Positions 7,936 through 63,386 are shown, numbered from the stretch's first letter. The stretch: DNA of 64,000 nt from Pirellulales bacterium (GCA_035531595.1 DATKSN010000233.1:4414-68413); one strand, 5' to 3'. A program made the numbers and translations. Notes: generated by a model from the sequence alone, not told the origin.

Positions 7936-7941
7936 GGGCTG

Positions 7942-8853: not shown

Positions 8854-8855
8854 AC

Positions 8856-8983: not shown

Positions 8984-9108
8984 GATCGTGACCGGCAAGC
9001 TGCTCTTGGCAAGAAAGCGGACTTGGGATTATCTTGACCCTGGCGGTGGTCGTTTGGTTGCGCGCTGCGCGGCGCGGCCGCCGGAGTCTCGAACGAAAGG
9101 AGTCGACC

Positions 9109-10053: not shown

Positions 10054-10075
10054 TTCTTCTTCACCCGCAACCGAG

Positions 10076-10174
10076 AATGAGACGTTCACGGTGGCTGGGG
10101 CGGAGCCTAAGCGATGCCCCGGTCGCTATGTAGCCGGGGCATCGCTTACGCTCTGCCACCAGCCGGCGGGGGCT
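10076..10174 (+). repeat. Palindromic element family PAL, copy a (partial)
   Basis: Core: cacggtggctggggcggagcctaagcgatgccccgg...ccggggcatcgcttacgctctgccaccagcc. It starts about 20 bp after the SWIM gene stop. Confidence 0.8.
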
Positions 10175-10237
10175 TGAACCGGTCTTGCGTCCAGGCGAAG
10201 ATCTGGTTAATCTCCCGTTCCTTTCCCGCAACGTATC

Positions 10238-10684: not shown

Positions 10685-10712
10685 TTTCGTTCAAGAGGAA
10701 CGAGGAAATACC

Positions 10713-11393: not shown

Positions 11394-11500
11394 GCCGCGC
11401 GCACGACATGCCATCGTGACCTATGCTTGGTATGGACGGAACGCCACGGAGGGCGTTCCCTACAGACCTGACTTGATTCATCCGCGGTGAACCGACCGAC

Positions 11501-12628
11501 ATGACGGCAACCGTCGAAATCCCATTGCCGAACACGACGATTCCGGAGGTCACGCCGGCCCGGCGGCATTGGACGACGTCGCGGACGCTCGACGAGTTCG
11601 ATGCGCTCGAAGCCGCTTGGACGACGTGCCCAGCCGCCGCTTCCAACCCGATGCGGTCGTTTTCCTGGCTGCGCTCGGCGATCGCGAGCCTGGCCCAAGA
11701 GCGGAAAATCCAGGTGATCGCGCTGTGCGACGGCGCGCGACTGTTGGCCGCGGCGCCTTTGATCAGGGCTCAGGCCGGCCGCTGGGAACTCTTGAACCAT
11801 TACAAGCTCTACGAGCCGGCCGATCTGGTGTACGCCGACGCGGCCGCCTTGGCCGAGTTGACAGGCGAGCTGGCTCGCCGTGGATTGCCGCTTTTCCTGG
11901 GGCGTCTGCCGGCCGATTCGCCCACGGTCGCGGCCATCCAAAGGGCTTACGGCCGGCGGGGGCGCGTCGTCGTCCGTCCCCAGGCCGGCTTCCCCTACAT
12001 TCCGCTCGACGCCGCCTGGTCGGCGCCGGAAGGCCGGCTCTCGTCGCGCCGCCGCGGCGACTTTCGCCGTGCTCGGCGGCACGCCGAGGAGCAGGGCGAA
12101 GTGGCCGGCGAGATCGTCGCCCCGTCGTCGCGCGACGTCGATGAACTGCTCGACGTCGTGTTTGAGATCGAGGGTCTTTCCTGGAAGGGCGCGCAGGGGA
12201 CGGCCTTGGCCCGTGACGCCGCCCGCGCCGCCTTCTACCGCCGTTTCGCACGCCGCGCCGCGCGCGACGGCAGCCTGCGATTGGGCTTCCTGCGGATCGG
12301 CGGCAACGTGGCGGCCGTGCAGATCAGCGTGGTCCAGGCCGATGCCCTGTGGGTGCTCAAGATCGGCTACGATCCGCGCTTCCATCGGGCCAGTCCCGGC
12401 ATCCTGCTGATGGTCGAGCAGATCAAGGATGCCGTGGCGGCCGGACTTTCGCGGTACGAGTTGCTTGGGACGGTCGAGCCGTGGATTCAGGTCTGGACCG
12501 AACACCAGCGGGCCTGCGTCTCGTTGCGCGCTTATCCGGCCAACCTGCGGGGCGCGGCCACGCTGGCGCGGGAAGCGGCGGCCATGGGATACCGGCGGCT
12601 TCTGGGGCGCGCGGCATGCGAACGCTGA
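11501..12628 (+). CDS. GNAT/FemAB-related acetyltransferase (CelD-like, Acetyltransf_6 type)
   Basis: C-terminal FLRIGGNVAAVQISVVQADALWVLKIGYDPRFHRASPGILLMVEQIKDAVAAGLSRYELLG is typical of CelD-like GNAT proteins. Confidence 0.6.
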   Translation: MTATVEIPLPNTTIPEVTPARRHWTTSRTLDEFDALEAAWTTCPAAASNPMRSFSWLRSAIASLAQERKIQVIALCDGARLLAAAPLIRAQAGRWELLNHYKLYEPADLVYADAAALAELTGELARRGLPLFLGRLPADSPTVAAIQRAYGRRGRVVVRPQAGFPYIPLDAAWSAPEGRLSSRRRGDFRRARRHAEEQGEVAGEIVAPSSRDVDELLDVVFEIEGLSWKGAQGTALARDAARAAFYRRFARRAARDGSLRLGFLRIGGNVAAVQISVVQADALWVLKIGYDPRFHRASPGILLMVEQIKDAVAAGLSRYELLGTVEPWIQVWTEHQRACVSLRAYPANLRGAATLAREAAAMGYRRLLGRAACER

Positions 12629-13551
12629 CGAGCTACCTGCGGCGAACCGCTTCAGGCTGCCTTTGGCCGCTTGCTCGGCGCGCCGCCCGCGGCTACATCG
12701 CCGGACCCGAACTCGGCGACGCGCTGCGCGTCGCCGATCATCTGGGCGGACGCGGGTTTCGTTCGACGCTGGGCTTTTGGGACGGCGAAGGGGACTCGCC
12801 GCGCGGCGTGGCCGACCAATACCTGGCCGCGCTCGACGCCCTGGCCGCGCGGCGCGCCGAACATGCCGCCGAGGCGGGCGGCGACTCGTATCTCTCGATC
12901 AAGCCGCCCGCCTTGCAATTCTCGCCGGAGTTGCTGGGTGAAGTGGCCCACCGCGCGGCGCGGCGGCAGGTACGGCTGCACTTCGATTCCCATGGGCCGG
13001 AAACGGCCGCCGCCACCTGGCAGGCGATCGCGGCGCTCGCCGGCGCGGGATCGGAGCTGAGTTGTACGTTGCCCGGCCGCTGGCGAAGGAGCCTTGACGA
13101 CGCCGAGTCGGCGATCGCGCGGGGTGTGATCGCCCGCGTGGTCAAGGGGCAATGGAGCGACGTCGAGCAGCCGGAGCTCGGCATGCGCGAGGGCTTCTTG
13201 AACGTCATTGATCGTTTGGCGGGCCGAGCGCGGCATGTGGCGGTGGCCAGCCACGACGCGCCTTTGGCGGCCGAGGCGCTCAAGCGGCTGCGGGCAAGCG
13301 GAACCTCATGCGATCTGGAGCTTCTTTACGGACTGCCGGTGCGCGCCGCGCTCGACGTGGCGGCCGAGCTTGGCGTACCCGTTCGGATTTACGTCCCGTA
13401 CGGCCGAGCTTATCTTCCCTATTGCCTGGCCCAGGCCCGGCGTCAGCCGCGCCTGCTTTGGTGGCTGTTGCGCGATTCCCTCGTTCCCACGCTCCGCGTG
13501 GGAGCGCACCGTCGGCCGCTCCGCGGCCCTGGCGGCTCGCTCAAAGGCTAG
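12616..13551 (+). CDS. Proline dehydrogenase-family protein
   Basis: Start moved to ATG 12616 (MRTLTSYL), which overlaps the GNAT gene end by 13 nt. Motifs: YLSIKPPAL, ARVVKGQW, VASHDA, LELLYGLP, RIYVPYGRAYLPYCLAQARRQP. The last 20 or so codons are encoded by a REP element. Confidence 0.65.
   Translation: MRTLTSYLRRTASGCLWPLARRAARGYIAGPELGDALRVADHLGGRGFRSTLGFWDGEGDSPRGVADQYLAALDALAARRAEHAAEAGGDSYLSIKPPALQFSPELLGEVAHRAARRQVRLHFDSHGPETAAATWQAIAALAGAGSELSCTLPGRWRRSLDDAESAIARGVIARVVKGQWSDVEQPELGMREGFLNVIDRLAGRARHVAVASHDAPLAAEALKRLRASGTSCDLELLYGLPVRAALDVAAELGVPVRIYVPYGRAYLPYCLAQARRQPRLLWWLLRDSLVPTLRVGAHRRPLRGPGGSLKG
13478..13528 (+). repeat. REP-like element (gttcccacgctccgcgtgg family), copy 1
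   Basis: ccctcgttcccacgctccgcgtgggagcgcaccgtcggccgctccgcggcc. Related copies lie at 13631, 20947, 33187 (inverted) and 63399. Confidence 0.8.
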
Positions 13552-13578
13552 GATGGCAACGCGGCCGACCATCGTAGA

Positions 13579-13622
13579 CATCACGCTCCGCGTGATGAAA
13601 CCACATCACGCGGAGCGTGATG
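13579..13622. repeat. Perfect 19-bp-stem hairpin (catcacgctccgcgtgatg / catcacgcggagcgtgatg, 6-nt loop)
   Basis: Read directly from the sequence. It sits between two REP copies. Confidence 0.85.
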
Positions 13623-13630
13623 ACTACGGT

Positions 13631-13681
13631 CCCTCGTTCCCACGCTCCGCGTGGAAGCGCACCGTCGACCGCTCCGCGGCC
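13631..13681 (+). repeat. REP-like element, copy 2
   Basis: ccctcgttcccacgctccgcgtggaagcgcaccgtcgaccgctccgcggcc. Confidence 0.8.
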
Positions 13682-13829
13682 TGGGGCCGGCTCGCTGGGT
13701 TGAAGCTGTCGTGACGGAGCCGATAGAGTAGAGTTGGAGCTCCCCCACCGGAACGCCGGGCCAGGTGCCTTACCGCATTGTCCAAGTGCCATGCCATCCT
13801 AGACCGCGGTCGGGCAACCGTCGAGGAGG

Positions 13830-14327
13830 TCATGGCGCCCGGGCCGGCGCCTGGACGGGCACGACGAAGCTCATGTGCAACTCCGAGTGCCGCAGGTGCA
13901 AACTGTCCCACTCGTCGAGGCTCATCTCCCCCAGCAGCGCATGGGGCGATCGCTCGGTTTCGTCGCGCAGCCGTTGGATCGCCACCCGCAGCATGGCCAA
14001 GCCCTCGTCGGTGTTGATGGGGCCGGGTACGAGGAAATCGGCCGCTCGGCCCGGCAGCGTGAAGCCGGCCGACATGGGACGAGTGATGATCCGCCGACGC
14101 ATGAAAAGCCGCACGACCGTTCGTATCGGCCAGGGAGCCTTGTACGGAATGCCGTCGATGGCAAATTCCATCCCCCGCGACAAGTGAGCCAGGATTTGCC
14201 CCAGCGACCAATTGCCCAGCAGGCGGACCTCCCCGCCGGCCAGCCGCTCGGCGTCGTTCAAAAGATCCTGGTAACTGTCGTAGTGTACCTCTCTACGACC
14301 GGTTACTTTGCCCGTCTTGACGGCCAT
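13830..14327 (-). CDS. DinB-like / DUF1569-family protein
   Basis: Start moved to ATG 14327 (MAVKTGKVTGRREVHYDSYQDLL). Motifs: NWSLGQILAHLSRGMEFAIDG ... LDEWDSLHLRHSELHMSF. Confidence 0.65.
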   Translation of the reverse strand: MAVKTGKVTGRREVHYDSYQDLLNDAERLAGGEVRLLGNWSLGQILAHLSRGMEFAIDGIPYKAPWPIRTVVRLFMRRRIITRPMSAGFTLPGRAADFLVPGPINTDEGLAMLRVAIQRLRDETERSPHALLGEMSLDEWDSLHLRHSELHMSFVVPVQAPARAP

Positions 14328-23385: not shown

Positions 23386-24285
23386 ATGCAGACGGCCATC
23401 GCACGTTTCTTGCAATACCTTCGGGTGGAGCGCAACGCCTCGGCGCTGACGATCAAGAGCTATCGCGAGGATCTCGACGCGCTGACGGCGCACCTGACCG
23501 AGCGTCACGGCTCCGCGCCGGAACCCGGCGGGCTGACGACACTCGACTTGCGCGGCTACCTCTCGGGTCTGCATGAGCAGGGATACGCCAAGACCACCAT
23601 CGCGCGGCGGCTGGCTTCGCTGCGTAGCTTCTTTCGTTTCGGCCAGCGTGAAGGCTGGACCGAGACGAACCCCGCCAAGCCACTGCGAAACCCTCGCAAG
23701 AGTCGATCGCTGCCCCACTTCCTTTCGTCGGTGGAGCTGGGAACGCTCTTGGAAGCTCCCGTGGGCGACAAGCCGATGGGCCTGCGCGACCGGGCGATCC
23801 TCGAAACGCTTTACTCGGCCGGGCTGCGAGTGAGCGAGCTCGTCGGGCTTAACGACGGCGACCTCGATTTCGCGGCCGGCATCGTTCGGGTGCGCGGCAA
23901 GGGGAAACGCGAGCGACTATCGCCCGTTGGCTCGTTCGCCGCCAAGGCACTGGCTCGCTGGCTCAAGGTCCGCGTCATCAACCCACGCGAGTCCCAGGGC
24001 CCCGAGGCGCCCGTGTTCGTGAACAAATCGGGCCGTCGGCTCACCACTCGCAGTGTCGGCCGTTTGCTGGAGAAGTACCTTGCCGCGACCGGACTTGACC
24101 GCCGCACGACGCCCCACACGCTCCGGCACAGCTTCGCCACGCACCTCCTGGACGGCGGCGCCGACATCCGAAGCGTTCAGGAACTGTTGGGCCACAAGAG
24201 CCTGGTGACGACGCAGATCTACACGCACCTCAGCACGGCCAATCTGAGGGCGGCCTACGAAAAGGCGCACCCGCGCGCCAATTGA
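23386..24285 (+). CDS. xerC: Tyrosine recombinase XerC/XerD family
   Basis: [61 protein letters not shown]. Confidence 0.85.
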
Positions 24286-28656: not shown

Positions 28657-31600
28657 ATGGATCCACGCAGTTCCAACCCACAATCCGAAGCGGCCGCGCA
28701 AGAAATGCTCGGCTATTTGAACTTCTCGTCCGGGACGGCCGACCCCAAGTTTCAACGCAACGCGAATTTCCTTTTCCGCTCGATTCTTGACGAATCGGCC
28801 CAGGGCCAAGGGGTCTGGCAACAAGTTGGCTGCCGCCTGCGAGACCAGCTCGCCCGGCTGCGTGGCACGTCGGCCGCGTTCGATGAAGTCGAGCAAGCCC
28901 AAGCGGTGATTGGACTTGTGTTCGATCATTTGTCGCCCCACTACCGCGAGTTTCATCACGATTTATTGAGCCACCAAAGCTCCGACGCGCTATTCGGCCC
29001 TTTCTTCCTGGTTCGAGCGTGCGAAGCGGTGCTCCAACAGGGGCCCCCCTTGGATGAGTCGGAGCGAATCGTCCCGGCCGCGCTGGCGCAATTGAATGAC
29101 TTCCTGGGACATCGCCCTGTCGCCGTGCTCCAGACCCCCCAACGGATCGAGCCCTACGCGCATGAATGGGTATGCCCCATCCCCCTCTACTTGAGGGGAG
29201 TTGGCGTCGCCTGCGGATCGTACCACGATCTGGTCGAGCAGGCCCTGGCGATTCTCGAAGCAACCGATTCCGAAATCTTGGAGCAGGCATGCTTCGACCC
29301 GGCTTTGCTCGACGAACTGGCGCTCGACCCGCGGGCTTACGACTTCGATCATCCGGTCAACAAGCGGCCCAACTACCAGTTCGGCCAATGGGATCCGCAC
29401 CGCATCGACAATCAAGGGCGCTACCGCCGCTTCGTGTTGCAGGAAGTGACGCTCGAGGCCCTTGGCAAGCGTCTGGCTGGACAGGTTTCGCTACCGGCCG
29501 ACGAGTTGCTGTTCGAGGCCGGCGCGGTCTTGGCGGGAACGATGCTGATGGCCTCGGCCGTCAGCGGCCGCGGTCCCGACACGCACGATTCGGGCACGAC
29601 CTTGGCGACTCTGGTTCCGCGGATCGCCGCCTTCCGCGACTCTTTCTATCCGCGATTGCTCGCCGGAGTCGCGGGGCCGCACGGCGAGAGACTGCGGGCC
29701 GAAGCGGCGACGCTTCGTCAACCGTTCGGCGGCGCGCGGCAACACTTGAACCAGTGCCTGGCCCGTTTGCGGGCCGTGCAGCTTCAACATGTTCACCTGG
29801 CCCAGTTGTTCGCGCGGATGGGTTTTCCCGAAGCCAGCAGCCGGCAAGCCCAGGTCGTGCCGGTGGCTTCGGCGCGCTTACTGTGCGAGATCAACGGCCG
29901 GCTGACCGCCGGGCATCACGCCATCGACCGCGGGCAGCTTGCCCACGCCGCGCGGCTGCTCGCGGAAATCGAAGACCTGCTCCAGCGGGCGATCGAGTGC
30001 GGTGCGCTGGTCGATCCGTGGAACGTGCTGGGGTTTCAGGGCCAGTTCAGCTTGTTTCCGGCCATGGAAAACAGCGTGCGCGACCACCGCGTCGACGTGT
30101 TGATCCATCTGATTGAGCATGTGTTCGGACTTTACGCGAGGCTCGAAGGCGAGGCGGCCGCCCGAGGCGACGGCCCGCTCGCCACGAAACTCGCGGCCGA
30201 CATGAAGATACGAGCGCGCTGGTGGGACCAGTTCGCGACGCTCGAAGTGGCGAGTGTGGCCCACGTATCGGGACGCGAGGCGGCCGAATCGGCGTCGCAT
30301 GTGGCCGACGCCTTGGGCGCCTGGCAACGCGCCGGCGCCGCGGCCGGCGACGTGGCCTTCTGGCGCCAGCACGTCGATCGCTTCACCTCGCCCAAGTCGT
30401 ACGCGTTGGTCGTCGATGCGCTCCTGGAGCAGCGCGATTTCGTCGCCGCGCTGGCGCTCTTGATCCAGTGGCTGGGACAGGCCGCCGAAGTGCCGCTGGT
30501 CGAAGGAGAATACTCGTTCCACGAGTTGGCCGATCGATGGTTGCGCGGCCTCGGGCCGGCCGTCACACGTTGGCCCCTGACCGTGAAGTTCTTCGATTAT
30601 CTCGAAGCCAACGCCGAGGAATACTGGGAGGTGCCGCGGTTCGAGTTCGACGCCGGACGCGCGCCGGGCGGCCGGCGCGACCGCGACGACGAAGCCGAGC
30701 CGGACGCGGAGCACGACCCGGATTTGTTCAGCGCCGCTTACGACGACGTCGTCTACCGCGACAGCACCGGCGACGGCCATGATGCCGACATGCTCGAAGG
30801 GCCCAGCGCGGCGAACGATTTCGAGTTGGAATTCGAAGCGACACGGCTCGAACAGCGATTGGCGTTTCTTTCGACGTTGGCCCGGCTTTGGAAACTGGCC
30901 TCCGGCATGTCGGCGTCGGCCACCGACACGCGCGCGCGCGACGCGATGCTTCGCGGATGGTTTTCACGCGCCGTGTCGAACCGGCGCGAACTGTTCAAGC
31001 TGCTGCGCGCGATACACCGTTTCCGCGTGCCCGCCCCCCGCGGAACGCACGAATCGCTGGTCGAATACGACCGCCGGCGGTTGCTCAAAGAGTCGCTGCT
31101 GGCGCGGATCGTGGCGGCCTGCGTCGAAACCTCGTCAGCCGCGCGCTGGCTCCTGGCCGCCTGCCATGTCGCCGACGGCGACGGTGGCGACGGTGGCGAG
31201 AGTGGCGAGAGTGGCGATGGCGGCGAGAGTGGCGACGGCGGCGACAGCGGCGACGGCGGCGACGGCGGCGAGAGCAAGGATCTGGCCGATTGGGAACGAC
31301 GATCCGTCGGCGTGCTGCGGGCCATGTTTCGCGGCGACGCCGATCAAGTGCGCGCTCGGTTTCCCCAATTGCGCCTCATGCTTGAGCGCGAACCCATCTT
31401 GTACGTGCCCTTGTCGCGGCACGGCGCGCCCGGTCAAATCGTGGGCGCCCAGACGCTGCAACACCTGCTGTTGGCCCTCCTGCGCGGGCTGCCGCGGCTG
31501 GGACTCTTGACGGAGACCTGCCAGGTGATCGCCACGGCGCAGGCCATGGAGCAACATCGCCCCGACCGGGAAGGAGCGGTCACCGAGTTCGACCGATTGT

Positions 31601-32679
31601 TCGAGGTCGGATATCGGGCGATCGTCGAAGCGCTGGTCAGGTCCGCCGGCGACACCCGCGCCGCCGGCGCCACATCGGCCGGAGGCCAAAGTCACGAGCT
31701 CATCGCGGCGACCGACTCCGAGCTGATCGATTCACTGCAAATGGTGACCGAGCGGCTGCTCAAAGGCTGGCTCGGGCATAGCCGCTCGTTGCGGTTGAGC
31801 GTGCTTGAAAAAGTCGCCGAGCACGACCGCTGGCAGGCCCTGGTCGGCTTCATCGAGCGTTATGGCCACGACCTGTTCACACCGCGCTTCTTCAACCTGG
31901 GCAACCTGCGGGCCATCCTTCATCAGGGAGTCGACGCCTATCTCGACGGCCTGGAGGCGAGCGACGCGGCCGACGAGATCGGGCTCTTGTCGGAACTCGA
32001 CGCTCAGGTTCCCCGTGCCACGGTGGTCGAACAGTTGAGCCTGGTGATTGAGGCGATCGTGGAGAACTTCGGCGAATTCAAGGACTACAACAGCACCACG
32101 ACCCAATCGGACCAGGGCGAGTTGCTTTACGTGCTGTTGGATTTCCTGCGGCTCAAGGCGGGTTACGACCGTTTCGCCTGGAACATCAAGCCGGTCGTGC
32201 TGGCCCATGAGATTCTGGTGCGGCACGGCCGCATGGCGGCGGCCGAACTCTGGCGGCGAGCGGTCGCCGATCGCACGAGCCGGGCCGCCGATTGGCACCT
32301 GCGGCGGTTGGGTGAACTGGTCGAACAGTACAGCGTCAGGCTGCCGACGATCGCCGACCGCTTGGGCGAGCGGTTCGTCCGGCCGCTGGCCATCGACCGC
32401 GTCCGCGCGTTGATTCGGCCGGCCATCGAGGAAGCACGCCGCGGCGATCCGCCGACCGCCTTCGACCTCTTGGAGCAGGAACTCGCCGAATTCACCGAGC
32501 ACCCCTCCGGAGCGGGACTCGACGTACCCGCCTGGTTGACCGCGCTGGAGAACGAAGTGGCCGAGGTCGGCCCCACGCGCCGCCGCGGACTGGATGCCGA
32601 TGACGTGCCGCCGCCGGTGCCCCTGCTGCCGCTCGCGTGGGACGCGGTGCAACAGCAGCTTCAGACGGGAGAATGGTGA
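28657..32679 (+). CDS. Very large hypothetical protein (1340 aa), predicted mostly helical, no recognised domain
   Basis: Single long ORF with consistent GC3 codon bias. I see no P-loop, catalytic motif or TM segment. It contains an internal (D/E)(G/S)G low-complexity tract. Confidence 0.75.
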   Translation: MDPRSSNPQSEAAAQEMLGYLNFSSGTADPKFQRNANFLFRSILDESAQGQGVWQQVGCRLRDQLARLRGTSAAFDEVEQAQAVIGLVFDHLSPHYREFHHDLLSHQSSDALFGPFFLVRACEAVLQQGPPLDESERIVPAALAQLNDFLGHRPVAVLQTPQRIEPYAHEWVCPIPLYLRGVGVACGSYHDLVEQALAILEATDSEILEQACFDPALLDELALDPRAYDFDHPVNKRPNYQFGQWDPHRIDNQGRYRRFVLQEVTLEALGKRLAGQVSLPADELLFEAGAVLAGTMLMASAVSGRGPDTHDSGTTLATLVPRIAAFRDSFYPRLLAGVAGPHGERLRAEAATLRQPFGGARQHLNQCLARLRAVQLQHVHLAQLFARMGFPEASSRQAQVVPVASARLLCEINGRLTAGHHAIDRGQLAHAARLLAEIEDLLQRAIECGALVDPWNVLGFQGQFSLFPAMENSVRDHRVDVLIHLIEHVFGLYARLEGEAAARGDGPLATKLAADMKIRARWWDQFATLEVASVAHVSGREAAESASHVADALGAWQRAGAAAGDVAFWRQHVDRFTSPKSYALVVDALLEQRDFVAALALLIQWLGQAAEVPLVEGEYSFHELADRWLRGLGPAVTRWPLTVKFFDYLEANAEEYWEVPRFEFDAGRAPGGRRDRDDEAEPDAEHDPDLFSAAYDDVVYRDSTGDGHDADMLEGPSAANDFELEFEATRLEQRLAFLSTLARLWKLASGMSASATDTRARDAMLRGWFSRAVSNRRELFKLLRAIHRFRVPAPRGTHESLVEYDRRRLLKESLLARIVAACVETSSAARWLLAACHVADGDGGDGGESGESGDGGESGDGGDSGDGGDGGESKDLADWERRSVGVLRAMFRGDADQVRARFPQLRLMLEREPILYVPLSRHGAPGQIVGAQTLQHLLLALLRGLPRLGLLTETCQVIATAQAMEQHRPDREGAVTEFDRLFEVGYRAIVEALVRSAGDTRAAGATSAGGQSHELIAATDSELIDSLQMVTERLLKGWLGHSRSLRLSVLEKVAEHDRWQALVGFIERYGHDLFTPRFFNLGNLRAILHQGVDAYLDGLEASDAADEIGLLSELDAQVPRATVVEQLSLVIEAIVENFGEFKDYNSTTTQSDQGELLYVLLDFLRLKAGYDRFAWNIKPVVLAHEILVRHGRMAAAELWRRAVADRTSRAADWHLRRLGELVEQYSVRLPTIADRLGERFVRPLAIDRVRALIRPAIEEARRGDPPTAFDLLEQELAEFTEHPSGAGLDVPAWLTALENEVAEVGPTRRRGLDADDVPPPVPLLPLAWDAVQQQLQTGEW

Positions 32680-43329: not shown

Positions 43330-44802
43330 TCATCCGAGCTTGACCGTGACCGTTTTCAATTCCGTGTAGTGCTGCAGGGCGGCCTCGCCGTTTTCGCGGC
43401 CCTGGCCCGACATCTTGAAGCCACCAAACGGCGTCGTGGTGTCGACGACATGATAACAGTTCACCCAAACCGTCCCGGCTTTGACGCGCTGCGCGAAAAG
43501 GTGCGCTTTGTCGATATTCTTGGTCCAGATCGCGGCCGCCAGGCCATATTGAGTCCGGTTGGCGCGATCGACGACCTCGTCCACCCCCTCAAATGGCAAG
43601 ACGCTGACCACCGGCCCGAAGATCTCGTCCTTGGCGATCGCCATCTCGTCACGCACGTCGTCGAAGATCGTCGGCTCGATGAAGAAGCCACGCCCGCCGA
43701 CGCGGTGGCCGCCGGTCAGCAGCTTGGCCCCCTGTTTCCGGCCCAGGTCGACGTAGCCGAGAATCTTGTCCATCTGTTCCTGCGACACCTGCGGACCCTG
43801 TTCGGTGTTCGGGTCGAGCGGGTCGCCGATACGGCGATCTTTCGCCTTGGCGGCCAGGCGCTCGACGAACTCGCGGTGAATCGGAGCCTCGACGAACAGC
43901 CGGCTTCCGGCGGTGCAGCACTGGCCGCCGTGAAAGTAGATCGCGTGGAACGCTCCGGCCACGGCCTCGTCCAGGTCGGCGTCGGCGAAGACCACGTTGG
44001 GACTCTTGCCGCCCAACTCGAACGTAGTCCGCTTGAGCGTTTCGGCCGCGGCCTTCTGAATGATCTTGGCCGTATCGACGTGCCCGGTGAAAGCGATCTT
44101 GTCCACGTCCGGATGCGCGACCAGCGCCGCGCCGGCCGTTTCGCCGAAACCGTTGACGATGTTGATCACGCCCGGCGGGAAACCGGCCTCGATCGCCAAC
44201 TCGGCCAATCGCAGCGCGGTCAGCGGGCTTTGCTCTGCGGGCTTCATGACGACCGTGTTGCCGCATGCCAAGGCCGGACCCCATTTCCAGGCCAGCATCA
44301 ACAGCGGGAAGTTCCAAGGAATGATCTGGCCGACGACGCCGACCGGCTGGCGCAGCGTGTACGATAGAAAGCTTCCGCGGACGGGCACGGTGCGGCCTTC
44401 GATCTTGTCGGCCCAGCCGGCGTAATAGCGGAGCGTGTTCACGACCCCTTGCAGGTCGCCACGCGCATCGCGAATCGTCTTGCCGCAATTCAGCGATTCC
44501 AGCGCGGCCAACTCGTCGGAGTTCTGCTGTGCGAGGTCCGCCAACTGGTACAGCAGCCGTCCCCGCTCGGCCGCGTCGCACTTCGACCAGGGGCCCGATT
44601 CCAGCGCCGCCCGCGCGGCCTTCACCGCGCGGTCGATATCCGGGGCCGTGCCCAAAGCCATTTGGGCGATGTTCTCGCCGGTGGCCGGGTTGATCGCGTC
44701 GAAATGCCCTCCCTCGACGGGGTCAACCCACTGGTTGTCGATCAGAAGCTTCGTCTGGCGGATCTTGGGGACGGTCGTACGTTGGACGAGAGTTTCGTGC
44801 AT
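43330..44802 (-). CDS. NAD(P)-dependent aldehyde dehydrogenase
   Basis: [24 protein letters not shown]-type ([10 protein letters not shown]), PFGGFKMSG. Confidence 0.9.
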
Positions 44803-44937
44803 GGTCGTCGTTCCTGGCGTAGTGTGATCGGATGTTTTCGTCCGGCGATCCTACCGAAGGCCCCCCACCGGTCGTCATTTCCATCGGACGATAGCGATAG
44901 TCTCGACTTAAGCATTGAGCATGTCAAGGAGCCGCCG

Positions 44938-47544
44938 CTACGCGACGAAGCGTCCCGGCACCGGATCGGCGGTGCGTTGACCGCCCTGGTGCTGGCCCAG
45001 CGTGGTCTTCGCCACGACACCGTCGAACAGCCGCTGCACGAATTCGCTTTCGTCGCAAATCTGCCGCACGGCGCGCAGGAACGAGGCGATCTCCTCGGCG
45101 CTGACCGTCAAGGGAGGCTGAATCCGCAGTACGCGCGGATTGGAACGCGTGACCTGGGTGTAGATGCCGTGCTCGTTCAAGAGCGTTTGCATCGCGTACA
45201 TGGCCGGCATGCCGTCGACGATCTGGTCGAGGTTGGCCACCAGGTAGGAGTTCAGGCCGCTGGCGTCGAGCGCTTTCCAGTGCGCGGCGATCGCGGCCGG
45301 CAAGGGCTTGAATTCGAGCCCGACCAGAAGACCTTGGCCGCGGACCTCGGCGAGCAAGTTGCTCTCGCGGCACAACTCGGCCAGCCCGTCGCGCAGTTGC
45401 TCGCCGCGCCGGTCGGCGCGCTGCGAAAGCCGTTCGTCTTCGATCACTCGCATCGCGGCAAGTCCCGCGGCGCAGGCCAGGCTGCCGCCGCCGAACGTGC
45501 TGGTGTGCAAGGCGAATGTTTGCACGGTGCCGTAGGCCTTGAGCCACAAGTCGCGGCGACAGAGCATGGCCCCGATCGGCAGCATGCCGCCGCCCAGCGA
45601 CTTGGCCAGTGTCATCGCATCAGGTTCAACCCCTTCATGGTCGCAGGCGAACAGTCGGCCGGTGCGGCCCAGTCCGGTTTGCACCTCGTCGACGATCAAG
45701 AGCGTGCCGGCGGCGCGGCACAAGTCCTGCGCTTCGCGCAGGTAGCCCGGCGGCGGCAGGTACATGCCCCCTTCCGCTTGCAACGGCTCGACGATGAAGG
45801 CGGCAAAATGGCGTGAAGCCAAAGCCCGCTCGAGGGCTCCGGCGTCGCCATAGGTGATCGACTGGCATTCGGGCACGAGCGGCCCGAAGGCCCGCTGATA
45901 ATTCGCATTGCCGGTCACCGAAAGCGAGCCGAACGACTTGCCGTGGAACGAGCGTGTGCAATGGAGCAGACCGGCGCGGCCCGTCGCCGCGCGGGCGAGC
46001 TTGAGCGCCGCCTCGACCGCTTCCGTGCCGCTGTTGGCGAAGAACGCCATCTCCAGGCTGGGCGGGGCGAGCGAAACGAGTTTCTCGGCGAGCGCCGCGG
46101 CGTAGGGGTTCACCGCCGATTGAGCGAAACCGGGCGCCTGCTTTTGGATCGCCTCGGTCAATGCGGCGGCGACGGCCGGGTGGTTGTGGCCTAGATTCAT
46201 CGAGCCGAAACCGGCCACGAAATCGAGGTACTCCTTTCCGTCTGCATCCCAGAGCCGCGTGCCCGCCCCGCGCACGAAGGTCTTGGCGAACTGGCTCTTG
46301 GATGAGATCGCCATCAGCACGGGGTTCAGATAGCGCGCGTGTAGTTTGGCGGATCGGCTTGCGTCGGGCGCGACCGGCGCCGCGGCCGACACGCTCGGAT
46401 CGGCAAAGGGTAACGTGGCCCGACGTTCGGCCGACCGTTCGCGCACCAGCGCCTTGCGGAAACGGACCAGGGCCAGATCGTCCAAAGGCAAGCCGAACGA
46501 TATCAGCCGCGAGAAGTCGAAACCGTGCGCGCCGGCCCGGGCGCCGATCGCGAGGATGCCGTTGGTGTCGAGTTGGCGCCCCAGCGAGAAACACTCGGCG
46601 CGGCCGTCGAGCGCAAGGACCATGGTCTCGGCCAGGCAACTCGGAACCATACCCTGGTGGAACCAGAGGTAGTTTGAATCGAGCGGCACGGTGGGCGGCA
46701 CCTTGGCCAGTCCGCCGGAGAGAATCAGCACGTCGTCGCGTATCGCCCGGTTGCCGTTGACGTCGGTGGGCACGGCCACGTCGACGATGATGCTGCCCGC
46801 TTGCAGCTTGTCCTGGTCGATGCAATTGCCCGAGGAGGTGGCCGAAAGCACGACGCGGGCCTGGGCCAGCGCGGCGGGGATGTCCAACAACAGTTCGGCG
46901 TCGAGTTGTTCGGCGAGTTGCACGGCGCGGGACGAAGCGTTCCTCGCGACCAACAGCAGCCGGCCGCAACGCGGCGCCAGCAGCCTCGCCGCGGCCACGG
47001 CTATGCTACCCGGAATTCCGATCACCGCCACGGTTTCGTCGGCCAGGTCGATTTCGGTTTCAAGGCACAGTTGCGCCAGGTTTTCCAAGGCGGCGAACAC
47101 GGTCAGGCTGTTTCCGGTCGTCACGTGGATGGGCCCGCGCGCGGCCAAGTGCGTGCCGTGCCCGCCCACCACGCCCGTCATGGAACCGAGTCCCACGAGC
47201 CGCGCGCCCCAGGCGGCGGCCTCGTCCACCGCTTTCTCCATGTAGTCCACCGCGCGCCCCGGGTCGTCCAGAATCTCCCAGGCGTCCATGGGGATTTCGT
47301 AGAACCGTCCGTGAGCTCGGGCGCCTGTGGCCGAGACCAGCCCGCACAACTCATCCACCACGCGAACACGCGGCTCGCCGACGGTTGCCTGACGTCGCCG
47401 CGCCGGTGCCAGCATTTTGTGCAGACTGGCGCAGAAGCTCAACAAATCGCCGCCGTGATCGCGGTGCAGGTGCCCATTGGGATCAAGCTCCAACAGGGTC
47501 TTCGTCTCATCACTGAGGGGATGAATCAAGAACGCGAACTTCAT
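44938..47544 (-). CDS. Fusion: acyl-ACP-reductase-like (COG5322) domain + class-III (omega) aminotransferase
   Basis: Start at ATG 47544 (MKFAFLIHPL). The N-terminal half parallels cyanobacterial acyl-ACP reductase as I recall it: FAFLIHPL / FGLIGHL, GLGSMTGVV / LGGFTSII, VTTGNS / FTTGNT, VAVIGIPGSIA / VAVVGATGDIG. The catalytic-Cys region also matches, PSCLAETMVLAL / FACFAEAMLLEF. The C-terminal half has LDFVAGFGSMNLGHNHP, ANSGTEAVEAALKLAR, DEVQTGLGRTG and TLAKSLGGG. Confidence 0.75.
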   Translation of the reverse strand: MKFAFLIHPLSDETKTLLELDPNGHLHRDHGGDLLSFCASLHKMLAPARRRQATVGEPRVRVVDELCGLVSATGARAHGRFYEIPMDAWEILDDPGRAVDYMEKAVDEAAAWGARLVGLGSMTGVVGGHGTHLAARGPIHVTTGNSLTVFAALENLAQLCLETEIDLADETVAVIGIPGSIAVAAARLLAPRCGRLLLVARNASSRAVQLAEQLDAELLLDIPAALAQARVVLSATSSGNCIDQDKLQAGSIIVDVAVPTDVNGNRAIRDDVLILSGGLAKVPPTVPLDSNYLWFHQGMVPSCLAETMVLALDGRAECFSLGRQLDTNGILAIGARAGAHGFDFSRLISFGLPLDDLALVRFRKALVRERSAERRATLPFADPSVSAAAPVAPDASRSAKLHARYLNPVLMAISSKSQFAKTFVRGAGTRLWDADGKEYLDFVAGFGSMNLGHNHPAVAAALTEAIQKQAPGFAQSAVNPYAAALAEKLVSLAPPSLEMAFFANSGTEAVEAALKLARAATGRAGLLHCTRSFHGKSFGSLSVTGNANYQRAFGPLVPECQSITYGDAGALERALASRHFAAFIVEPLQAEGGMYLPPPGYLREAQDLCRAAGTLLIVDEVQTGLGRTGRLFACDHEGVEPDAMTLAKSLGGGMLPIGAMLCRRDLWLKAYGTVQTFALHTSTFGGGSLACAAGLAAMRVIEDERLSQRADRRGEQLRDGLAELCRESNLLAEVRGQGLLVGLEFKPLPAAIAAHWKALDASGLNSYLVANLDQIVDGMPAMYAMQTLLNEHGIYTQVTRSNPRVLRIQPPLTVSAEEIASFLRAVRQICDESEFVQRLFDGVVAKTTLGQHQGGQRTADPVPGRFVA

Positions 47545-47838
47545 CTCCCCGGAGTCAGCCGGCGAGGCGGACGCCCAAGGAGGTCGCGACGGGCAGCCGA
47601 GGTTGTCCTGGATCGCCATAAGTTGTTCGATCTTGGCCTTACAGAAGCAGGGAACAAGGGTCAATGCGATGGAGTATCGACCACGGCGGGCGGCAATCTT
47701 TGACGGTTCACGCGATTTTAACGATCCGAGCCTCTGTTAGGAGCTTGGCGATGAGGTGGAAGCAAGGGGATTTTGGACGGCTGCGCGGCATAGGATACCG
47801 TGCGAGCGTGCTGGAACAAAGGCGTCTTTGTTCGCAAA

Positions 47839-48111
47839 CCCTCGTTGTTCTACACATCTTCAGGGAGGCCACGGGCTTGCCCCGTGGAGTTTCACGCTCG
47901 TATCTACACACGCAGGATGCCCGGATTACCTGCCTTTCCCCGTGTCGCCCCTCGGGCCGCCTCCGCCTCCGGCGGCCTGCGGTGCCCGCGACACCGCCCC
48001 TTCGGGGCGGACGACATTCTTCGCGGGACATTCCTCTGACGAAGAAGCCCCTGATTGCCCAACATTCCCATTTCACCACCTGCGATCAAAAGATGCGTAG
48101 AACAACGAGGG
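47839..48111 (-). other. Candidate structured RNA / cis-regulatory leader (family unassigned)
   Basis: A 15-bp perfect closing stem (47839-47853 / 48097-48111) extends to about 19 bp. Nested inside are the helices cgcagg/cctgcg (47911-16 / 48079-84), gtgtcgc/gcgacac (47942-48 / 47987-93), ggccgcc/ggcggcc, ccacggg/cccgtgg and ccgcccc-ttc-ggggcgg. It is non-coding and lies between the OMP stop and the fusion-gene start. Confidence 0.35.
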
Positions 48112-48131
48112 CTTACGCCCCAGGCTAGTAC

Positions 48132-59553: not shown

Positions 59554-59925
59554 ATGCTGACAACGAGCTGTTGCCTGTTGGCGCAGGCGGCGGACGGGCC
59601 GCCCAACCCGTGGCAAGGGCTGCAGTTGCCCATGATGGCGCTGATGGTCTTCGCGATGTACATCTTCATCGTGCAACAACCCAGGGCCAAGCGCGAGCAA
59701 CAGACGCGGCAGCAGATGCTGAAGAACCTGAAGAAGAACGACCATGTGCTGACGACCGGAGGCATTTACGGCGTGGTGACCCAAGTGCAGTTCGACGCCG
59801 ACGAAGTGACCATTCGGGTCGACGATGCGTCGAACACGCGGCTGCGAATGACGTTAAGTTCCATCGCCCGCGTGTTGGGCGACGACCCGGCGGGCGACAA
59901 AGAACCTAAGAAAGAAACGAAATGA
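59554..59925 (+). CDS. yajC: Preprotein translocase subunit YajC
   Basis: One TM segment (PMMALMVFAMYIFIV), then QQPRAKREQQ...LKKNDHVLTTGGIYGVV. Confidence 0.8.
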   Translation: MLTTSCCLLAQAADGPPNPWQGLQLPMMALMVFAMYIFIVQQPRAKREQQTRQQMLKNLKKNDHVLTTGGIYGVVTQVQFDADEVTIRVDDASNTRLRMTLSSIARVLGDDPAGDKEPKKETK

Positions 59926-62900
59926 CCAAGTCGGCATCGCAAAGCGGATGGCGCTCGGGGTTCGTCACGGCGGCAACATGGTTGGCGCTGTCGGCCCTTG
60001 TATGGACCTGGACGGGGCCGGCCGCCGCATGGGCGCCGGGCGACGATACACCCGCCACCGCGGAACGCGCGGCTGAGCAAGATAACCCAACCGATGCGTC
60101 GGCCCCGACGAACGGGTCGGCCTCAACCGATGGGACGGCGCCAACGAACGGGTCGGACCCAACCGATGGGTCGGCAAACGCCGCGACCGGTTCCCAAGGC
60201 GCGTCAAAGCCGAAGGGCAACAGCGGCCGCGTGTTGTCGATCGTGGCGCTGGTGGCGGCGATCTTCATCATCCCGATGTTGCTGGGCAACTTCCTGAGCA
60301 AGAAGTTGAGGATGCCCGATCACGGCACGCGGATTTCCATCGTGTTGTTCGCGATCATCGCTTCGGTCGCGGCGACCCTGGGCGGTTGGCCACCCAAGCT
60401 CGGCATCGACTTGGGGGGCGGCGCGATCCTGGTCTACGAGGTGAAGGACAAAAGCTTCAAGGAAATGGACAAGCTGGTCGGCGCCGTCCTCAAACGCGTC
60501 AACCCCGACGGCCTCAAGGAGGTGAATGTTCGCCCTTATGGCGAGCACGAAATCGAAATCATCATTCCCATGGCCGACGAGGCCGAACTGGCGCGGATGC
60601 AGAACATCATCAGCCAGCAGGGAACGCTCGAGTTTCGCATCGTGGCCGACGCCCAGTTCCGTGAGGATGAAGAGATCATCAACCTGGCCAAGGACGACCA
60701 GTTCAAGGACGAAAAAGACGTCATCGACGCCGACAAGGACGGCGCGACGACCGTGGTCGCTCGCTGGGTGCCGGTCGTGCCCGACGAGGTCGGCTCGATC
60801 GTGTCGCAGCGCGGCCATCCGGTTCGCGAGAACAAAAAGGGCGAGACGGAAGTGCTGGTGCTGATCGACAAGCAGAATGTGACCGGCGAATTCTTGACCA
60901 GCGCCACGGCCGGCAACGACGAAAACGCCCAGCCCTGCGTGCATTTCCGCTTCAACCCGGCGGGGGCCAAGCGGTTCGGCCGGCTGACCTCGAACAACCT
61001 GCCTAACCCGATCGACGAAAAGCAGGCCCATAAGCTGGCCATCATTCTCGACGGCCGCTTGCACTCGGCCCCCTTCATTCGCAGCCGCATCGACGAGTTG
61101 GGGCAGATCACCGGCCGCTTCACCGCCGAAGAGGTCGGGCGGTTGGCCGACGTGCTCACCGCCGGCAGCCTGCCGACCACGCTCCGCGAGGAGCCGACCA
61201 GCAGCATGCACATCGGGGCGACGCTGGGCGAGGACACGAAAACCAAGGGCGTCTGGTCGATGATCTGGTCGACCGTGGCCGTCGTGATCTTCATGGTGTT
61301 CTATTATCGCTTCGCCGGCATCGTGGCCAACCTGGCCTTGCTGTTGAACGTGTTGTTGATCGTGGCCTTCATGATCCTGTTCAACGCGGCCTTCACCTTG
61401 TCGGGCCTGGCCGGCCTGGCCCTGACCGTGGGCATGGCCGTCGACGCCAACGTGCTCATTTACGAACGGATGCGCGAGGAGATCTCGCGCGGCGCCACGT
61501 TGCGGATGGCCATCCGCAACGGCTTCGAACGCGCGACGACGACGATCGTCGACGCCAACGTGACGACCCTGATTTCGGCCGTCGTGCTCTGGTTCATCGG
61601 CACCGATCAGGTCAAGGGTTTCGCCGTGACCTTGATTCTGGGGATCGTCATGAACCTGTTCACCGCGATCACCTTCACGCGGCTGATCTTCGACATCGCC
61701 GAAAAACACCGCTGGATCAAGCAGCTCAAGATGTTGAGGGTCATGGAGAAACCCAACTTCGACTTCATCGGCAAGCGCAAGCTGGCCATCAGTTTTTCGC
61801 TGCTTCTGATCGGCGCCGGGCTGGTGGGCGTATTCCTGCGCGGCCGCGGCTTATTGGACATCGACTTTACCGGCGGCGTTTCGGTGCAAGTGCTGTTCGA
61901 GAAGAAACAGGAAATCGGGTACATCCGCGACCGGGTGAACGACTTGCCGGACGTGACCGTGCAATCGGTCGACTTGGGCGACGAGGAGAAAGGGCATCGT
62001 TTCCTGATCGTGACGTCGATGTCGGAAATCGACGAGTCGAATCCACCGCCGAGCGGCCCGAAAACGAACATCACCCTGGTGGAGCGGACGCTCAAGGATG
62101 TTTTCAACGACGCCGACCATCGGCTGGCGTTCAATCACTTGACGTGGAGCGGCCTGGCGCCGCACGGTGGGTTGAAACCGGCGACCGAAGCCAAGCCCCC
62201 CGACGATGCCAACCCTCCGGAAGCCGACGGCGCCGACGCGGGGCGAGCGGGGGGCGTTAGCCCCCTGTTGGCGGCGGCGTTGGACCCAGATGCCGACGCG
62301 GGGCGAGCGGGGGACGTTAGCCCCCTGTTGGTGGCGGCTGGATCCAACCAGGACGACGCCGCGACCATCGACGAATCGCCTTTGGAAAAAACCAAGCCTG
62401 CGAATCAGGCGGGCAGTCCGGCGACCAAGAAGGCCGGCGCGAAGCGAGATCTCTACGCCGGCGGCACGGTGGTGACGCTCACGTTTGCCGACGGCGACCC
62501 TGATGACGCGACAACCAAGCCCACGCAAGTCAATCACGACACTTTGAGCGGAGAGATCAAGCGAGCGCTCGTCGCCGGCGGCTTTTCGGAAAACGTCGCG
62601 TTCAAGTTGGACAACCCCGAGTATGAAGCTGGCAGCGACAAGCGTTTCGCCCAGTGGACGTTGACGATCGGGCTGACGGGCGAGCCGACCGAGTCGTTGC
62701 TCAAAGAGATCAAGCGGAAGCTGGCTCAGGAGCCGTTCTTCCCCTCGTCGAACCGAGTGGGCGCGAGCGTGGCGTTCAACACCCAGGCCCAGGCCACCTT
62801 CGCGCTCCTGGCCAGCCTGGTGATGATCGTGCTCTACGTCTGGATCCGCTTTCAGCAGGTGAGCTTCGGCTTCGCCGCGGTGTTGGCCTTGGTGCATGAC

Positions 62901-63386
62901 GTGCTGGTGGCCCTGGGCGCGTTGGCGCTGAGTTACTGGCTGGCCAACTTGCCGTTCATGGACAAATTGCTGATCGAGCCGTTCAAGATCAACCTGCCGA
63001 TCATCGCCGCTTTCCTGACGATCATCGGCTACTCGATCAACGACACGATCGTGATTTTCGACCGCATCCGCGAGATTCGCGGCAAGAGCCCCGAGTTGGG
63101 TCCCGACCTGGTCAACCGCTGCGTGAACGAGACCTTGAGCCGGACCTTGCTCACTTCGTTGACGGTGTTCATCGTGGTCTTGATTCTGTACATCTTCGGC
63201 GGGCTGGGCATCCACGGCTTCGCCTTCACTTTGGTCATCGGCACGATCAGCGGCACCTACAGCACGGTCTACATCGCCACGCCGGTGTTGATCTGGATGA
63301 ACAAGTCGAAGGTGCGCGGCGGCGGCGCCGCCGGCGGTTCGATGGCAAAGCCCAAGCCGCCCGTCCCCTCGGCCACTGGAAGCTGA
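59922..63386 (+). CDS. secDF: Fused protein-export membrane protein SecD/SecF
   Basis: ATGA overlap with yajC. SecD signatures: LGIDLGGG and GLALTVGMAVDANVLIYERMREE. SecF signatures: IGYSINDTIVIFDRIRE and LSRTLLTSLT. It has a Pro/Thr/Asp-rich N-terminus and an expanded periplasmic insert. Confidence 0.9.
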   Translation: MTKSASQSGWRSGFVTAATWLALSALVWTWTGPAAAWAPGDDTPATAERAAEQDNPTDASAPTNGSASTDGTAPTNGSDPTDGSANAATGSQGASKPKGNSGRVLSIVALVAAIFIIPMLLGNFLSKKLRMPDHGTRISIVLFAIIASVAATLGGWPPKLGIDLGGGAILVYEVKDKSFKEMDKLVGAVLKRVNPDGLKEVNVRPYGEHEIEIIIPMADEAELARMQNIISQQGTLEFRIVADAQFREDEEIINLAKDDQFKDEKDVIDADKDGATTVVARWVPVVPDEVGSIVSQRGHPVRENKKGETEVLVLIDKQNVTGEFLTSATAGNDENAQPCVHFRFNPAGAKRFGRLTSNNLPNPIDEKQAHKLAIILDGRLHSAPFIRSRIDELGQITGRFTAEEVGRLADVLTAGSLPTTLREEPTSSMHIGATLGEDTKTKGVWSMIWSTVAVVIFMVFYYRFAGIVANLALLLNVLLIVAFMILFNAAFTLSGLAGLALTVGMAVDANVLIYERMREEISRGATLRMAIRNGFERATTTIVDANVTTLISAVVLWFIGTDQVKGFAVTLILGIVMNLFTAITFTRLIFDIAEKHRWIKQLKMLRVMEKPNFDFIGKRKLAISFSLLLIGAGLVGVFLRGRGLLDIDFTGGVSVQVLFEKKQEIGYIRDRVNDLPDVTVQSVDLGDEEKGHRFLIVTSMSEIDESNPPPSGPKTNITLVERTLKDVFNDADHRLAFNHLTWSGLAPHGGLKPATEAKPPDDANPPEADGADAGRAGGVSPLLAAALDPDADAGRAGDVSPLLVAAGSNQDDAATIDESPLEKTKPANQAGSPATKKAGAKRDLYAGGTVVTLTFADGDPDDATTKPTQVNHDTLSGEIKRALVAGGFSENVAFKLDNPEYEAGSDKRFAQWTLTIGLTGEPTESLLKEIKRKLAQEPFFPSSNRVGASVAFNTQAQATFALLASLVMIVLYVWIRFQQVSFGFAAVLALVHDVLVALGALALSYWLANLPFMDKLLIEPFKINLPIIAAFLTIIGYSINDTIVIFDRIREIRGKSPELGPDLVNRCVNETLSRTLLTSLTVFIVVLILYIFGGLGIHGFAFTLVIGTISGTYSTVYIATPVLIWMNKSKVRGGGAAGGSMAKPKPPVPSATGS
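62232..62351 (+). repeat. 60-bp tandem duplication inside secDF (in frame)
   Basis: gccgacgcggggcgagcgggg(g/a)(g/c)gttagccccctgttgg... occurs twice, encoding DADAGRAGGVSPLLAAAL / DADAGRAGDVSPLLVAAG. Each unit contains a small hairpin (ggggc-gtta-gcccc). Confidence 0.85.

Follow-up and report, generated by a model that had tools for sequence, protein, structure and literature searches.

A Predicted PigE-Family Thioester Reductase/Aminotransferase Fusion in a Pirellulales Bacterium

The Locus

Two genes on the minus strand occupy positions 43330-47544 of the DNA analysed here, a stretch of 64,000 nucleotides from a Pirellulales bacterium (GCA_035531595.1 DATKSN010000233.1:4414-68413) that is called the window below. 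The upstream gene encodes a fusion protein of 868 amino acids (aa). Its N-terminal domain resembles acyl-ACP (acyl carrier protein) reductase (AAR), and its C-terminal domain is a class-III aminotransferase dependent on pyridoxal phosphate (PLP). By its sequence the protein belongs to the family of PigE, an enzyme of prodigiosin biosynthesis. The second gene encodes an aldehyde dehydrogenase (ALDH). The open reading frames (ORFs) place both genes on the minus strand at the positions given by the first-pass annotation of this DNA, which had also rightly named an ALDH.

The features of the locus are as follows.

44938..47544, minus strand: gene of the predicted PigE-family bifunctional thioester reductase/class-III aminotransferase, 868 aa, from its ORF, the NF053554 match and the alignment to PigE

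43330..44802, minus strand: gene of a canonical NAD(P)+-dependent ALDH, 490 aa, PF00171

44803..44937: spacer from the fusion gene to the ALDH gene, 135 bp, counted from the fusion stop codon

47545..48131: upstream intergenic region, 587 bp, unusually long

The fusion gene starts with an ATG at 47544, preceded by GGGGAG, which resembles a Shine-Dalgarno sequence. A longer ORF could be read from a TTG at 47664. It is not needed, because the N-terminus of the shorter protein, MKFAFLIHP, is conserved among homologues.

The Two Halves of the Fusion Protein

Within the fusion gene, the following parts can be distinguished.

46429..47544, minus strand: N-terminal AAR-like (AAR/PigE-N) putative thioester reductase domain, aa 1-372, from phmmer, PF01488 and Foldseek

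46999..47019, minus strand: Rossmann dinucleotide-binding motif GIPGSIA, aa 176-182, from the HMMER alignment to AAR, translation checked

46636..46638, minus strand: codon of Cys303, the putative catalytic residue that accepts the acyl group, aligned with Cys294 of AAR and Cys296 of PigE, codon checked

46345..46428, minus strand: interdomain linker, aa 373-400, unconserved, with AlphaFold pLDDT (a per-residue confidence score) below 50 at aa 377-390

45040..46344, minus strand: C-terminal class-III PLP-dependent aminotransferase domain, aa 401-835, PF00202

45601..45603, minus strand: codon of Lys648, the PLP Schiff-base lysine (TLAKSLGGG), invariant in 67 homologues, codon checked

The N-terminal domain is related to both PigE and AAR. 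A phmmer comparison of aa 1-379 with the PDB gives E 5e-47 for the PigE chain 4ppm_A, E 2.4e-14 for cyanobacterial AAR 6jzq and, as a weak match, E 4.5e-4 for GluTR. Pfam places PF01488, an NAD(P)-binding domain of the Shikimate_DH type, at aa 166-264 (E 5.7e-9). The first-pass annotation had matched the N-terminal domain to AAR motif by motif, and HMMER reproduces both of its pairings. The segment VPSCLAETMVLAL pairs with FACFAEAMLLEF of AAR, which contains the catalytic Cys294, and VAVIGIPGSIA pairs with AAR VAVVGATGDIG. GIPGSIA is also aligned with the nucleotide motif of PigE.

The residues expected of a reductase are strongly conserved. Cys303 is kept in at least 98% of 120 homologues and is invariant among 67. 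In the Rossmann motif, G176, P178, G179 and S180 are invariant among the same number, and little or no variation is seen in the TTGNS, GxPGS and ATS motifs (67-120 homologues).

A fold search with the full-length protein gave aminotransferase matches only. Because of this, the N-terminal domain was modelled and searched alone. In this model (pLDDT 81.9), the best seven Foldseek matches in the PDB are all AAR structures, with template-modelling (TM) scores of 0.67-0.78 and E values down to 7e-19. The next-best fold is the terminal amidation domain (TAD) of the carmabin pathway, which is itself related to AAR (TM ~0.65). Sequence identity is ~24% to AAR and ~14% to TAD. Both phmmer and Foldseek, then, find an AAR-type domain with the reductase Cys303 and not some other Rossmann family, the comparison that the first-pass annotation had proposed as a check. 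Its estimate of the size of the domain, about 430 residues, was too long: the domain is present, and it ends near aa 372, after about 370 residues.

Modelled in full by AlphaFold (mean pLDDT 82.7), the protein consists of two well-folded halves and a linker of low confidence between them, at about aa 373-400. The C-terminal half is, as previously proposed, a complete class-III PLP aminotransferase. Pfam finds the complete domain PF00202 (Aminotran_3) at aa 419-829 (E 9.5e-98), and the DEVQTG motif is conserved. Lys648 is at the position of the PLP lysine of this family. The nearest solved structures are PigE, then the putrescine aminotransferase YgjG, and then acetylornithine/ornithine aminotransferases.

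Membership of the PigE Family

The relationship to PigE extends over the whole protein. Residues 68-833 are joined to residues 53-848 of Serratia PigE (4ppm_A) in one collinear alignment with E 1e-162. The top NCBIfam model is NF053554, "prodigiosin MAP biosynthesis aminotransferase PigE", where MAP is 2-methyl-3-amylpyrrole. It scores 789.4 bits over aa 64-832, covering profile positions 48-832 of 837. Each element of the PigE-type architecture can be found: an AAR-like domain with an acyl-accepting Cys, a Rossmann site, and a C-terminal class-III aminotransferase with its Lys.

The protein does not reach the equivalog cut-off of NF053554, which is 850 bits. Representatives of true PigE score 1133 and 1392, and planctomycete-type representatives score 710-799. 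Identity between the window protein and the true PigE representatives is 38-42%. No gene for a PigD-like thiamine diphosphate enzyme, a PigB-like flavin-dependent oxidase or bipyrrole biosynthesis was seen in a Pfam scan of 48 ORFs of the window, and PigD and PigB are absent from the recurrent neighbours of the fusion gene in 80 related loci. Judged by its sequence, the 868-aa protein is a member of the PigE family in a separate clade, and is not PigE itself.

Comparison with Known Systems

Enzymes of this design have been described. In PigE, according to Couturier et al. 2021, an N-terminal AAR-like thioester reductase (Cys296) is followed by a C-terminal transaminase, and evidence obtained in vivo and in lysate indicates that the enzyme reduces a thioester and then transaminates the aldehyde (PMC8341465). 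TamH converts a C12 acyl thioester bound to TamA to a C12 amine (PMC9594044). The architecture of the window protein is already represented by these two enzymes and is no new enzyme design. The first-pass annotation had proposed that reduction of a thioester and transamination take place on a single chain. This proposal is supported by the domains, the catalytic residues and the ligase and carrier genes of relatives; the annotation did not recognise the relationship to PigE, and the combination it described is that of PigE.

PigE acts in the MAP branch of prodigiosin biosynthesis in Serratia (PDB 4PPM). The window protein shares with it the order of the domains, the length class, the catalytic Cys (C296 in PigE, C303 here), the G-x-P-G-S-I variant of the Rossmann motif and the PLP Lys. 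Unlike PigE, it is found without a pig cluster and in Planctomycetota rather than Proteobacteria. Its planctomycete relatives are accompanied by FemAB-like or GNAT, ANL and carrier-protein genes, not by PigD and PigB.

TamH makes the fatty-amine tail of tambjamine YP1 in Pseudoalteromonas tunicata. It is built from the same two domain families, and by analogy the window protein would follow the same route from an acyl-carrier thioester through an aldehyde to a primary amine. TamH differs in the order of its domains, with the aminotransferase N-terminal and the reductase C-terminal, and in its location in a bipyrrole pigment cluster. It relies on TamA, an ANL-ACP partner in which ligase and carrier are fused, whereas the counterpart in nine planctomycete loci is a pair of separate ligase and carrier genes. 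One protein with the swapped order of TamH (P0161, 835 aa) shares ~38% identity with the window protein over each domain.

Cyanobacterial AAR (6JZQ/6JZY) has the same fold as the N-terminal domain, and its catalytic Cys, TTGN motif and Rossmann site are aligned with those of the window protein. In the literature as cited in PMC8341465, AAR is described as having a ping-pong acyl-enzyme mechanism, with the aldehyde channelled to a partner. AAR is a stand-alone protein of ~340 aa, which passes its aldehyde to the oxygenase ADO for the formation of alkanes. Its sequence is also distant, and its Rossmann motif is GATGDIG, compared with GIPGSIA here. No ADO-like gene was found near the fusion gene in the Pfam annotation of the window ORFs.

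Finally, reductive release followed by transamination can be carried out by two separate enzymes, a reductase and an omega-transaminase. Examples are found in polyketide alkaloid pathways and in the TabE/TabA pair of tambjamine BE-18591 (bioRxiv 10.1101/2025.08.11.669332). The logic is shared with the fusion protein; the reductases of such pairs belong to unrelated families (ALDH/LuxC-like or SDR-type), and each activity has a polypeptide of its own.

Distribution

When 5.8 billion proteins were searched, more than 400 matched the fusion protein. The best 120 are nearly all full-length fusions of 850-970 aa with 58-100% identity, and the named sources among them are Pirellulales, Thermoguttaceae, Planctomycetia or Planctomycetota metagenome-assembled genomes (MAGs). 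An identical protein is recorded from a Pirellulales MAG.

To survey loci, two peptide patterns taken from the N-terminal domain were run against GTDB, with each species represented by a single genome. This yielded 89 loci, of which 80 were kept; since detection depended on these patterns, the counts do not give prevalence. A survey of phylogenetic spread had been proposed in the first-pass annotation. The loci come almost exclusively from Planctomycetota MAGs (Pirellulales, Planctomycetaceae, Gemmataceae, Isosphaeraceae), with one labelled Kuenenia and one Conexibacteraceae. In 80 of 80 loci the two domains are fused or adjacent. No cultured isolate turned up in this pattern survey. Because of this, and because the neighbourhoods vary, the gene appears to be an accessory gene of specialised metabolism rather than a core gene. 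Literature searches on a PigE-like clade in Planctomycetes returned nothing relevant.

The Conexibacteraceae locus (L073, contig CAVUYP010000001.1) is the only one labelled Actinomycetota. A DUF1501 gene, typical of planctomycetes, lies nearby, and the locus may have been mislabelled or wrongly binned. Blast matches to its fusion gene are fragmented, which suggests frameshifts from long reads.

Relatives of the N-terminal domain are found more widely. A library clustered at 50% identity contains 2262 at E <=1e-3 and 113 at E <=1e-30. They occur in three layouts: as stand-alone proteins of ~350 aa, as the N-terminal part of larger proteins with 840-920 aa (the PigE type), and as the C-terminal part of proteins with 700-840 aa. 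In two of the last kind (P0167 and P0172, ~700 aa), the first 340 residues are without an identified domain.

Conserved Neighbours in Related Loci

The flanking ORFs of the 80 loci were clustered, and the two nearest genes on each side were scanned with Pfam. Neighbours were counted in the 49 loci that have at least 3 kb of flank on each side, within 4 kb of the fusion gene unless stated otherwise.

FemAB_like/Acetyltransf_6 protein, ~400 aa: 26 of 49 loci; often directly downstream on the same strand after a gap of 50-90 bp, or divergent upstream; sometimes 2-3 paralogues

AMP-binding ligase, ~500 aa: 8 of 49 loci; divergent upstream; nearest models are long-chain fatty-acid-CoA ligase and MenE, all below cut-off

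Distinct GNAT, ~350 aa: 7 of 49 loci; upstream or downstream, within 2 kb

At least one of FemAB-like protein, ligase and GNAT: 32 of 49 loci

The ligase is present in nine loci overall, and in all nine the next gene is an ORF of ~90 aa for a PP-binding carrier. This arrangement parallels that of TamA and TamH, and it favours a substrate that is bound to a carrier as a thioester. To judge by the acyltransferases, the amine that is formed may afterwards be N-acylated. Rarer neighbours include MMPL and FtsX transporters, formyltransferases, sulfotransferases and methyltransferases.

The ligase and carrier genes form compact clusters in Planctomycetaceae MAGs (L053, positions 7046-13898; L077, L034, L029, L035, L039, L022, L027 and L072, at about 7700-13900), where they are divergent from the PigE-like gene. 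A FemAB-like gene follows the PigE-like gene, often with an NAD kinase beyond it, and in L053 and L077 the 350-aa GNAT follows the carrier.

The FemAB-like partner has no sequence match in the PDB. The 350-aa GNAT has marginal matches to N-myristoyltransferase only (E ~0.02), which are a lead and not evidence. The window contains one Acetyltransf_6 GNAT gene of its own (11501-12628, plus strand, 375 aa, PF13480, E 2e-29), 32 kb from the fusion gene. It is matched neither by tblastn nor by the partner-family profile hidden Markov model (HMM), and is probably unrelated to the FemAB-like partners.

Proposed Mechanism

The identities of the domains, the catalytic residues, the full-length homology to PigE and the conserved neighbours of the relatives are shown by the analysis. 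For the substrate, the direction of the reaction, the cofactor, the amino donor, channelling and the fate of the product, the following scheme is what we infer.

The acyl group would arrive as a thioester. Most likely the carrier is a phosphopantetheinyl protein, and an AMP-ligase loads it; in this strain the ligase would be encoded outside the 64-kb window. The acyl group would then be moved onto Cys303 of the AAR-like domain. The thioester on the enzyme would next be reduced by NAD(P)H from the GIPGSIA Rossmann site, giving a free aldehyde. Of the two cofactors NADPH is the more likely, since AAR, which depends on NADPH, has the same ARN motif following strand beta-2. The aldehyde would pass to the fused PLP domain, probably without being released, and be transaminated at Lys648 to a primary amine. 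In many relatives, this amine is probably N-acylated by the adjacent FemAB-like or GNAT acyltransferase. In some, the product may also be formylated or sulfated, and then exported.

Reduction of a thioester followed by transamination is predicted for the 868-aa protein from homology and from the ligase and carrier neighbours of its relatives. We consider it likely that the protein is a PigE-family enzyme that turns a carrier-bound acyl thioester into an aldehyde and then a primary amine, and that the adjacent ALDH is not a dedicated partner.

Several observations weigh against this view. The reductase activity of PigE has been reconstituted only in lysate, not with purified protein (PMC8341465). 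In the 64-kb window, neither the ligase and carrier nor the FemAB-like and GNAT partners were found, either by tblastn with all family members or, for the FemAB-like family, by hmmsearch. The pathway context is therefore borrowed from relatives with at most 64% identity. The closest relatives, with at least 71% identity, also have no ligase, carrier or acyltransferase partners nearby. Lastly, the 135 bp that separate the fusion gene from the ALDH gene have no recognisable terminator, and in this strain the two may be co-transcribed, perhaps with some functional coupling.

The Neighbouring Aldehyde Dehydrogenase

The ALDH is recognised by PF00171 with E 5.6e-183, and the WNFP, ELGGKSP and GQCCTAG motifs are present. 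Its best NCBIfam models are StyD, betaine-aldehyde dehydrogenase (BADH) and aminobutyraldehyde dehydrogenase. Every score is below cut-off: 496 bits compared with 615 for NF010000, and 389 compared with 909 for TIGR03374.

The genes beside the closest homologues are listed here, with identity to the fusion protein of the window.

L082: 100%, same ENA sample; ALDH downstream as in the window

L001: 91% (N-terminal domain); 1.5 kb of downstream flank without ALDH

L081 (P0002): 89%, same ENA sample; Peptidase_M56 gene downstream

P0010: 85%; unrelated small genes adjoin

L083 (P0006): 74%; GlmS upstream and a phosphoglucosamine-mutase-type (PGM_PMM, GlmM-like) gene downstream, confirmed by Pfam

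L033: 71%; GlmS/GlmM-like flanks as in L083, judged from ORF lengths only

Adjacency of the two genes is seen solely in this strain and in the identical contig L082. With the ALDH of the window as the query, tblastn against the 80 loci gave two matches only, in L047 (6 kb away) and in L073 (convergent, 46% identical). The latter is the single case among the 49 loci of any ALDH within 4 kb of the fusion gene. In L047, the ALDH is 81% identical to that of the window, yet the fusion protein is just 52-58% identical. This difference fits an independent, slowly evolving housekeeping enzyme. Synteny around the fusion gene is broken on both sides even at 89% identity, which points to frequent rearrangement rather than to selection for a pair with the ALDH.

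A conserved partnership was considered and is rejected by the two tblastn matches in 80 loci and by the different neighbours at 89%, 85% and 74% identity. The downstream ALDH is most likely a widely conserved general enzyme and not a dedicated partner of the fusion gene.

In L083 (5263-11987) and L033 (3037-9895), which form the 71-74% clade, the fusion gene lies among genes for UDP-N-acetylglucosamine precursors; the GlmS-type protein of L083 consists of GATase and SIS domains. In the window, LpxD and LpxI genes lie 3-7 kb from the fusion gene. Together with the GlmS/GlmM flanks, these genes may form a loose neighbourhood of envelope biosynthesis, or lie there by chance.

Flanking Regions and Transcription

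The spacer 44803..44937 contains neither a terminator-like nor a promoter-like site in a promoter/terminator scan. The same scan of the whole locus found zero promoter-like sites, and terminator-like sites no commoner than in shuffled sequence.

The long upstream region, 47545..48131, probably holds a promoter of the fusion gene's own. A terminator-like hairpin lies at 48122-48106 on the minus strand, after the upstream outer membrane protein (OMP) gene. The equivalent place is occupied by an RNase PH gene in L081 and by an ORF of equal length in L001. The presence of other genes there indicates recent rearrangement on the upstream side too.

Alternative Explanations

The ALDH could have been recruited in this strain as an accessory, which scavenges leaked aldehyde or diverts flux to an acid. 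The two genes share a strand and are separated by a short spacer without a detectable terminator, and the identical arrangement recurs on a second contig of the same sample. A route from thioester through aldehyde to acid would be futile, however, no related locus backs a conserved coupling, and the two-sided break in synteny at 89% identity points to rearrangement. Recruitment is unlikely.

Somewhat less likely again is an amine-catabolic pair, in which the aminotransferase deaminates a diamine or alkylamine, the ALDH oxidises the aldehyde to an acid, and the N-terminal domain is regulatory or vestigial. YgjG is the closest relative of the aminotransferase domain after PigE (E 1.7e-84), and the ALDH has its 496 bits on the aminobutyraldehyde dehydrogenase model; the shared strand, the distance of 135 bp and the lack of a detected terminator would suit such a pair as well. 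When the two are compared with a PatA-PatD-type pair, the equivalog scores are too low (344 bits for the aminotransferase on the putrescine aminotransferase model NF008570, cut-off 612) and the pairing is missing from 48 of the 49 related loci. Both uses of the ALDH had been put forward in the first-pass annotation, as scavenger or diverter of the aldehyde and as half of a catabolic pair, and both lose their footing with the adjacency, which is missing at 91, 89, 85 and 74% identity. The catabolic pair also has to account for Cys303, TTGNS and the Rossmann glycines, whose invariance across 67-120 homologues indicates a strong constraint that does not fit a vestigial domain. In addition, relatives pair the fusion gene with biosynthetic partners, namely an acid-activating ligase and a carrier.

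The N-terminal domain might also do something other than reductive release. It could carry out a TAD-like terminal amidation, or act like GluTR on an aminoacyl-tRNA ester before a GSAM-like step. TAD is the second-best fold, GluTR is a weak sequence match, and the Fem-family fold of the FemAB-type neighbours often uses aminoacyl-tRNA. Set against this are the closer identity to AAR than to TAD and the far stronger similarity to PigE, which is itself linked to thioester reduction. Fusion to an omega-transaminase is chemically sensible only if the product is an aldehyde, and the ligase and carrier neighbours imply a phosphopantetheine thioester, not a tRNA. A function of this kind is improbable.

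It is very improbable that the protein is a genuine PigE orthologue making the MAP precursor of a prodiginine-like pigment: PigE is its top NCBIfam model, and some homologues are labelled "3-acetyloctanal aminotransferase" by JGI, but its score is below the cut-off and below those of true PigE, its identity to true PigE is only 38-42%, and neither the annotated window ORFs nor the recurrent neighbours in 80 loci include a pig-like gene.

Other Features of the Window

The G+C content of the window is 58-70%. Genes around the fusion locus include those for DUF1501, DUF1598, DUF3467 and DUF1569 proteins, for LpxD and LpxI, and for a fused SecDF. The last of these is a single SecD-SecF protein of 1154 aa (59922-63386, plus strand), encoded downstream of YajC and tRNA-guanine transglycosylase.

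Further away, a region of lower G+C (983-6482, minus strand, 58-62%) contains genes for a Ser/Thr protein kinase, FHA-domain and VWA-domain proteins and a PP2C/SpoIIE phosphatase. An ORF of 1340 aa (28657-32679, plus strand) has a strong coding signal, with a G+C content at third codon positions (GC3) of 0.80, and has no Pfam match at E <=0.01. A XerC/D-like tyrosine recombinase (Phage_integrase with a SAM-like N-domain) is encoded at 23386-24285 on the plus strand. The 64-kb window shows no tRNA and nothing else that would indicate a mobile element; Rfam and tRNA scans were empty.

Significance

With the fusion gene, enzymes of the PigE type are found away from pigment clusters, in uncultured Planctomycetota of several orders, which is mildly new. 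The ALDH beside it should not be annotated within the pathway. Single-chain enzymes that occur naturally and lead from a thioester to an amine are of interest as biocatalysts for fatty amines.

From the gene set of the relatives (ligase, carrier, FemAB-like protein or GNAT, in some cases with formyl- or sulfotransferases and MMPL exporters), an undescribed metabolite derived from an amine may be suspected. More tentatively, the planctomycete PigE-like clade may mark an undescribed specialised pathway. In it, an acid, perhaps a fatty one, would be activated by ligase and carrier and converted to an alkylamine by the fusion protein, and the FemAB-like or double-GNAT proteins would acylate or aminoacylate the amine. 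The product could be a new class of N-acyl alkylamine lipids or signals, formylated or sulfated in some lineages and exported by MMPL or FtsX proteins. The gene in the window would then be the orphaned core enzyme of this pathway.

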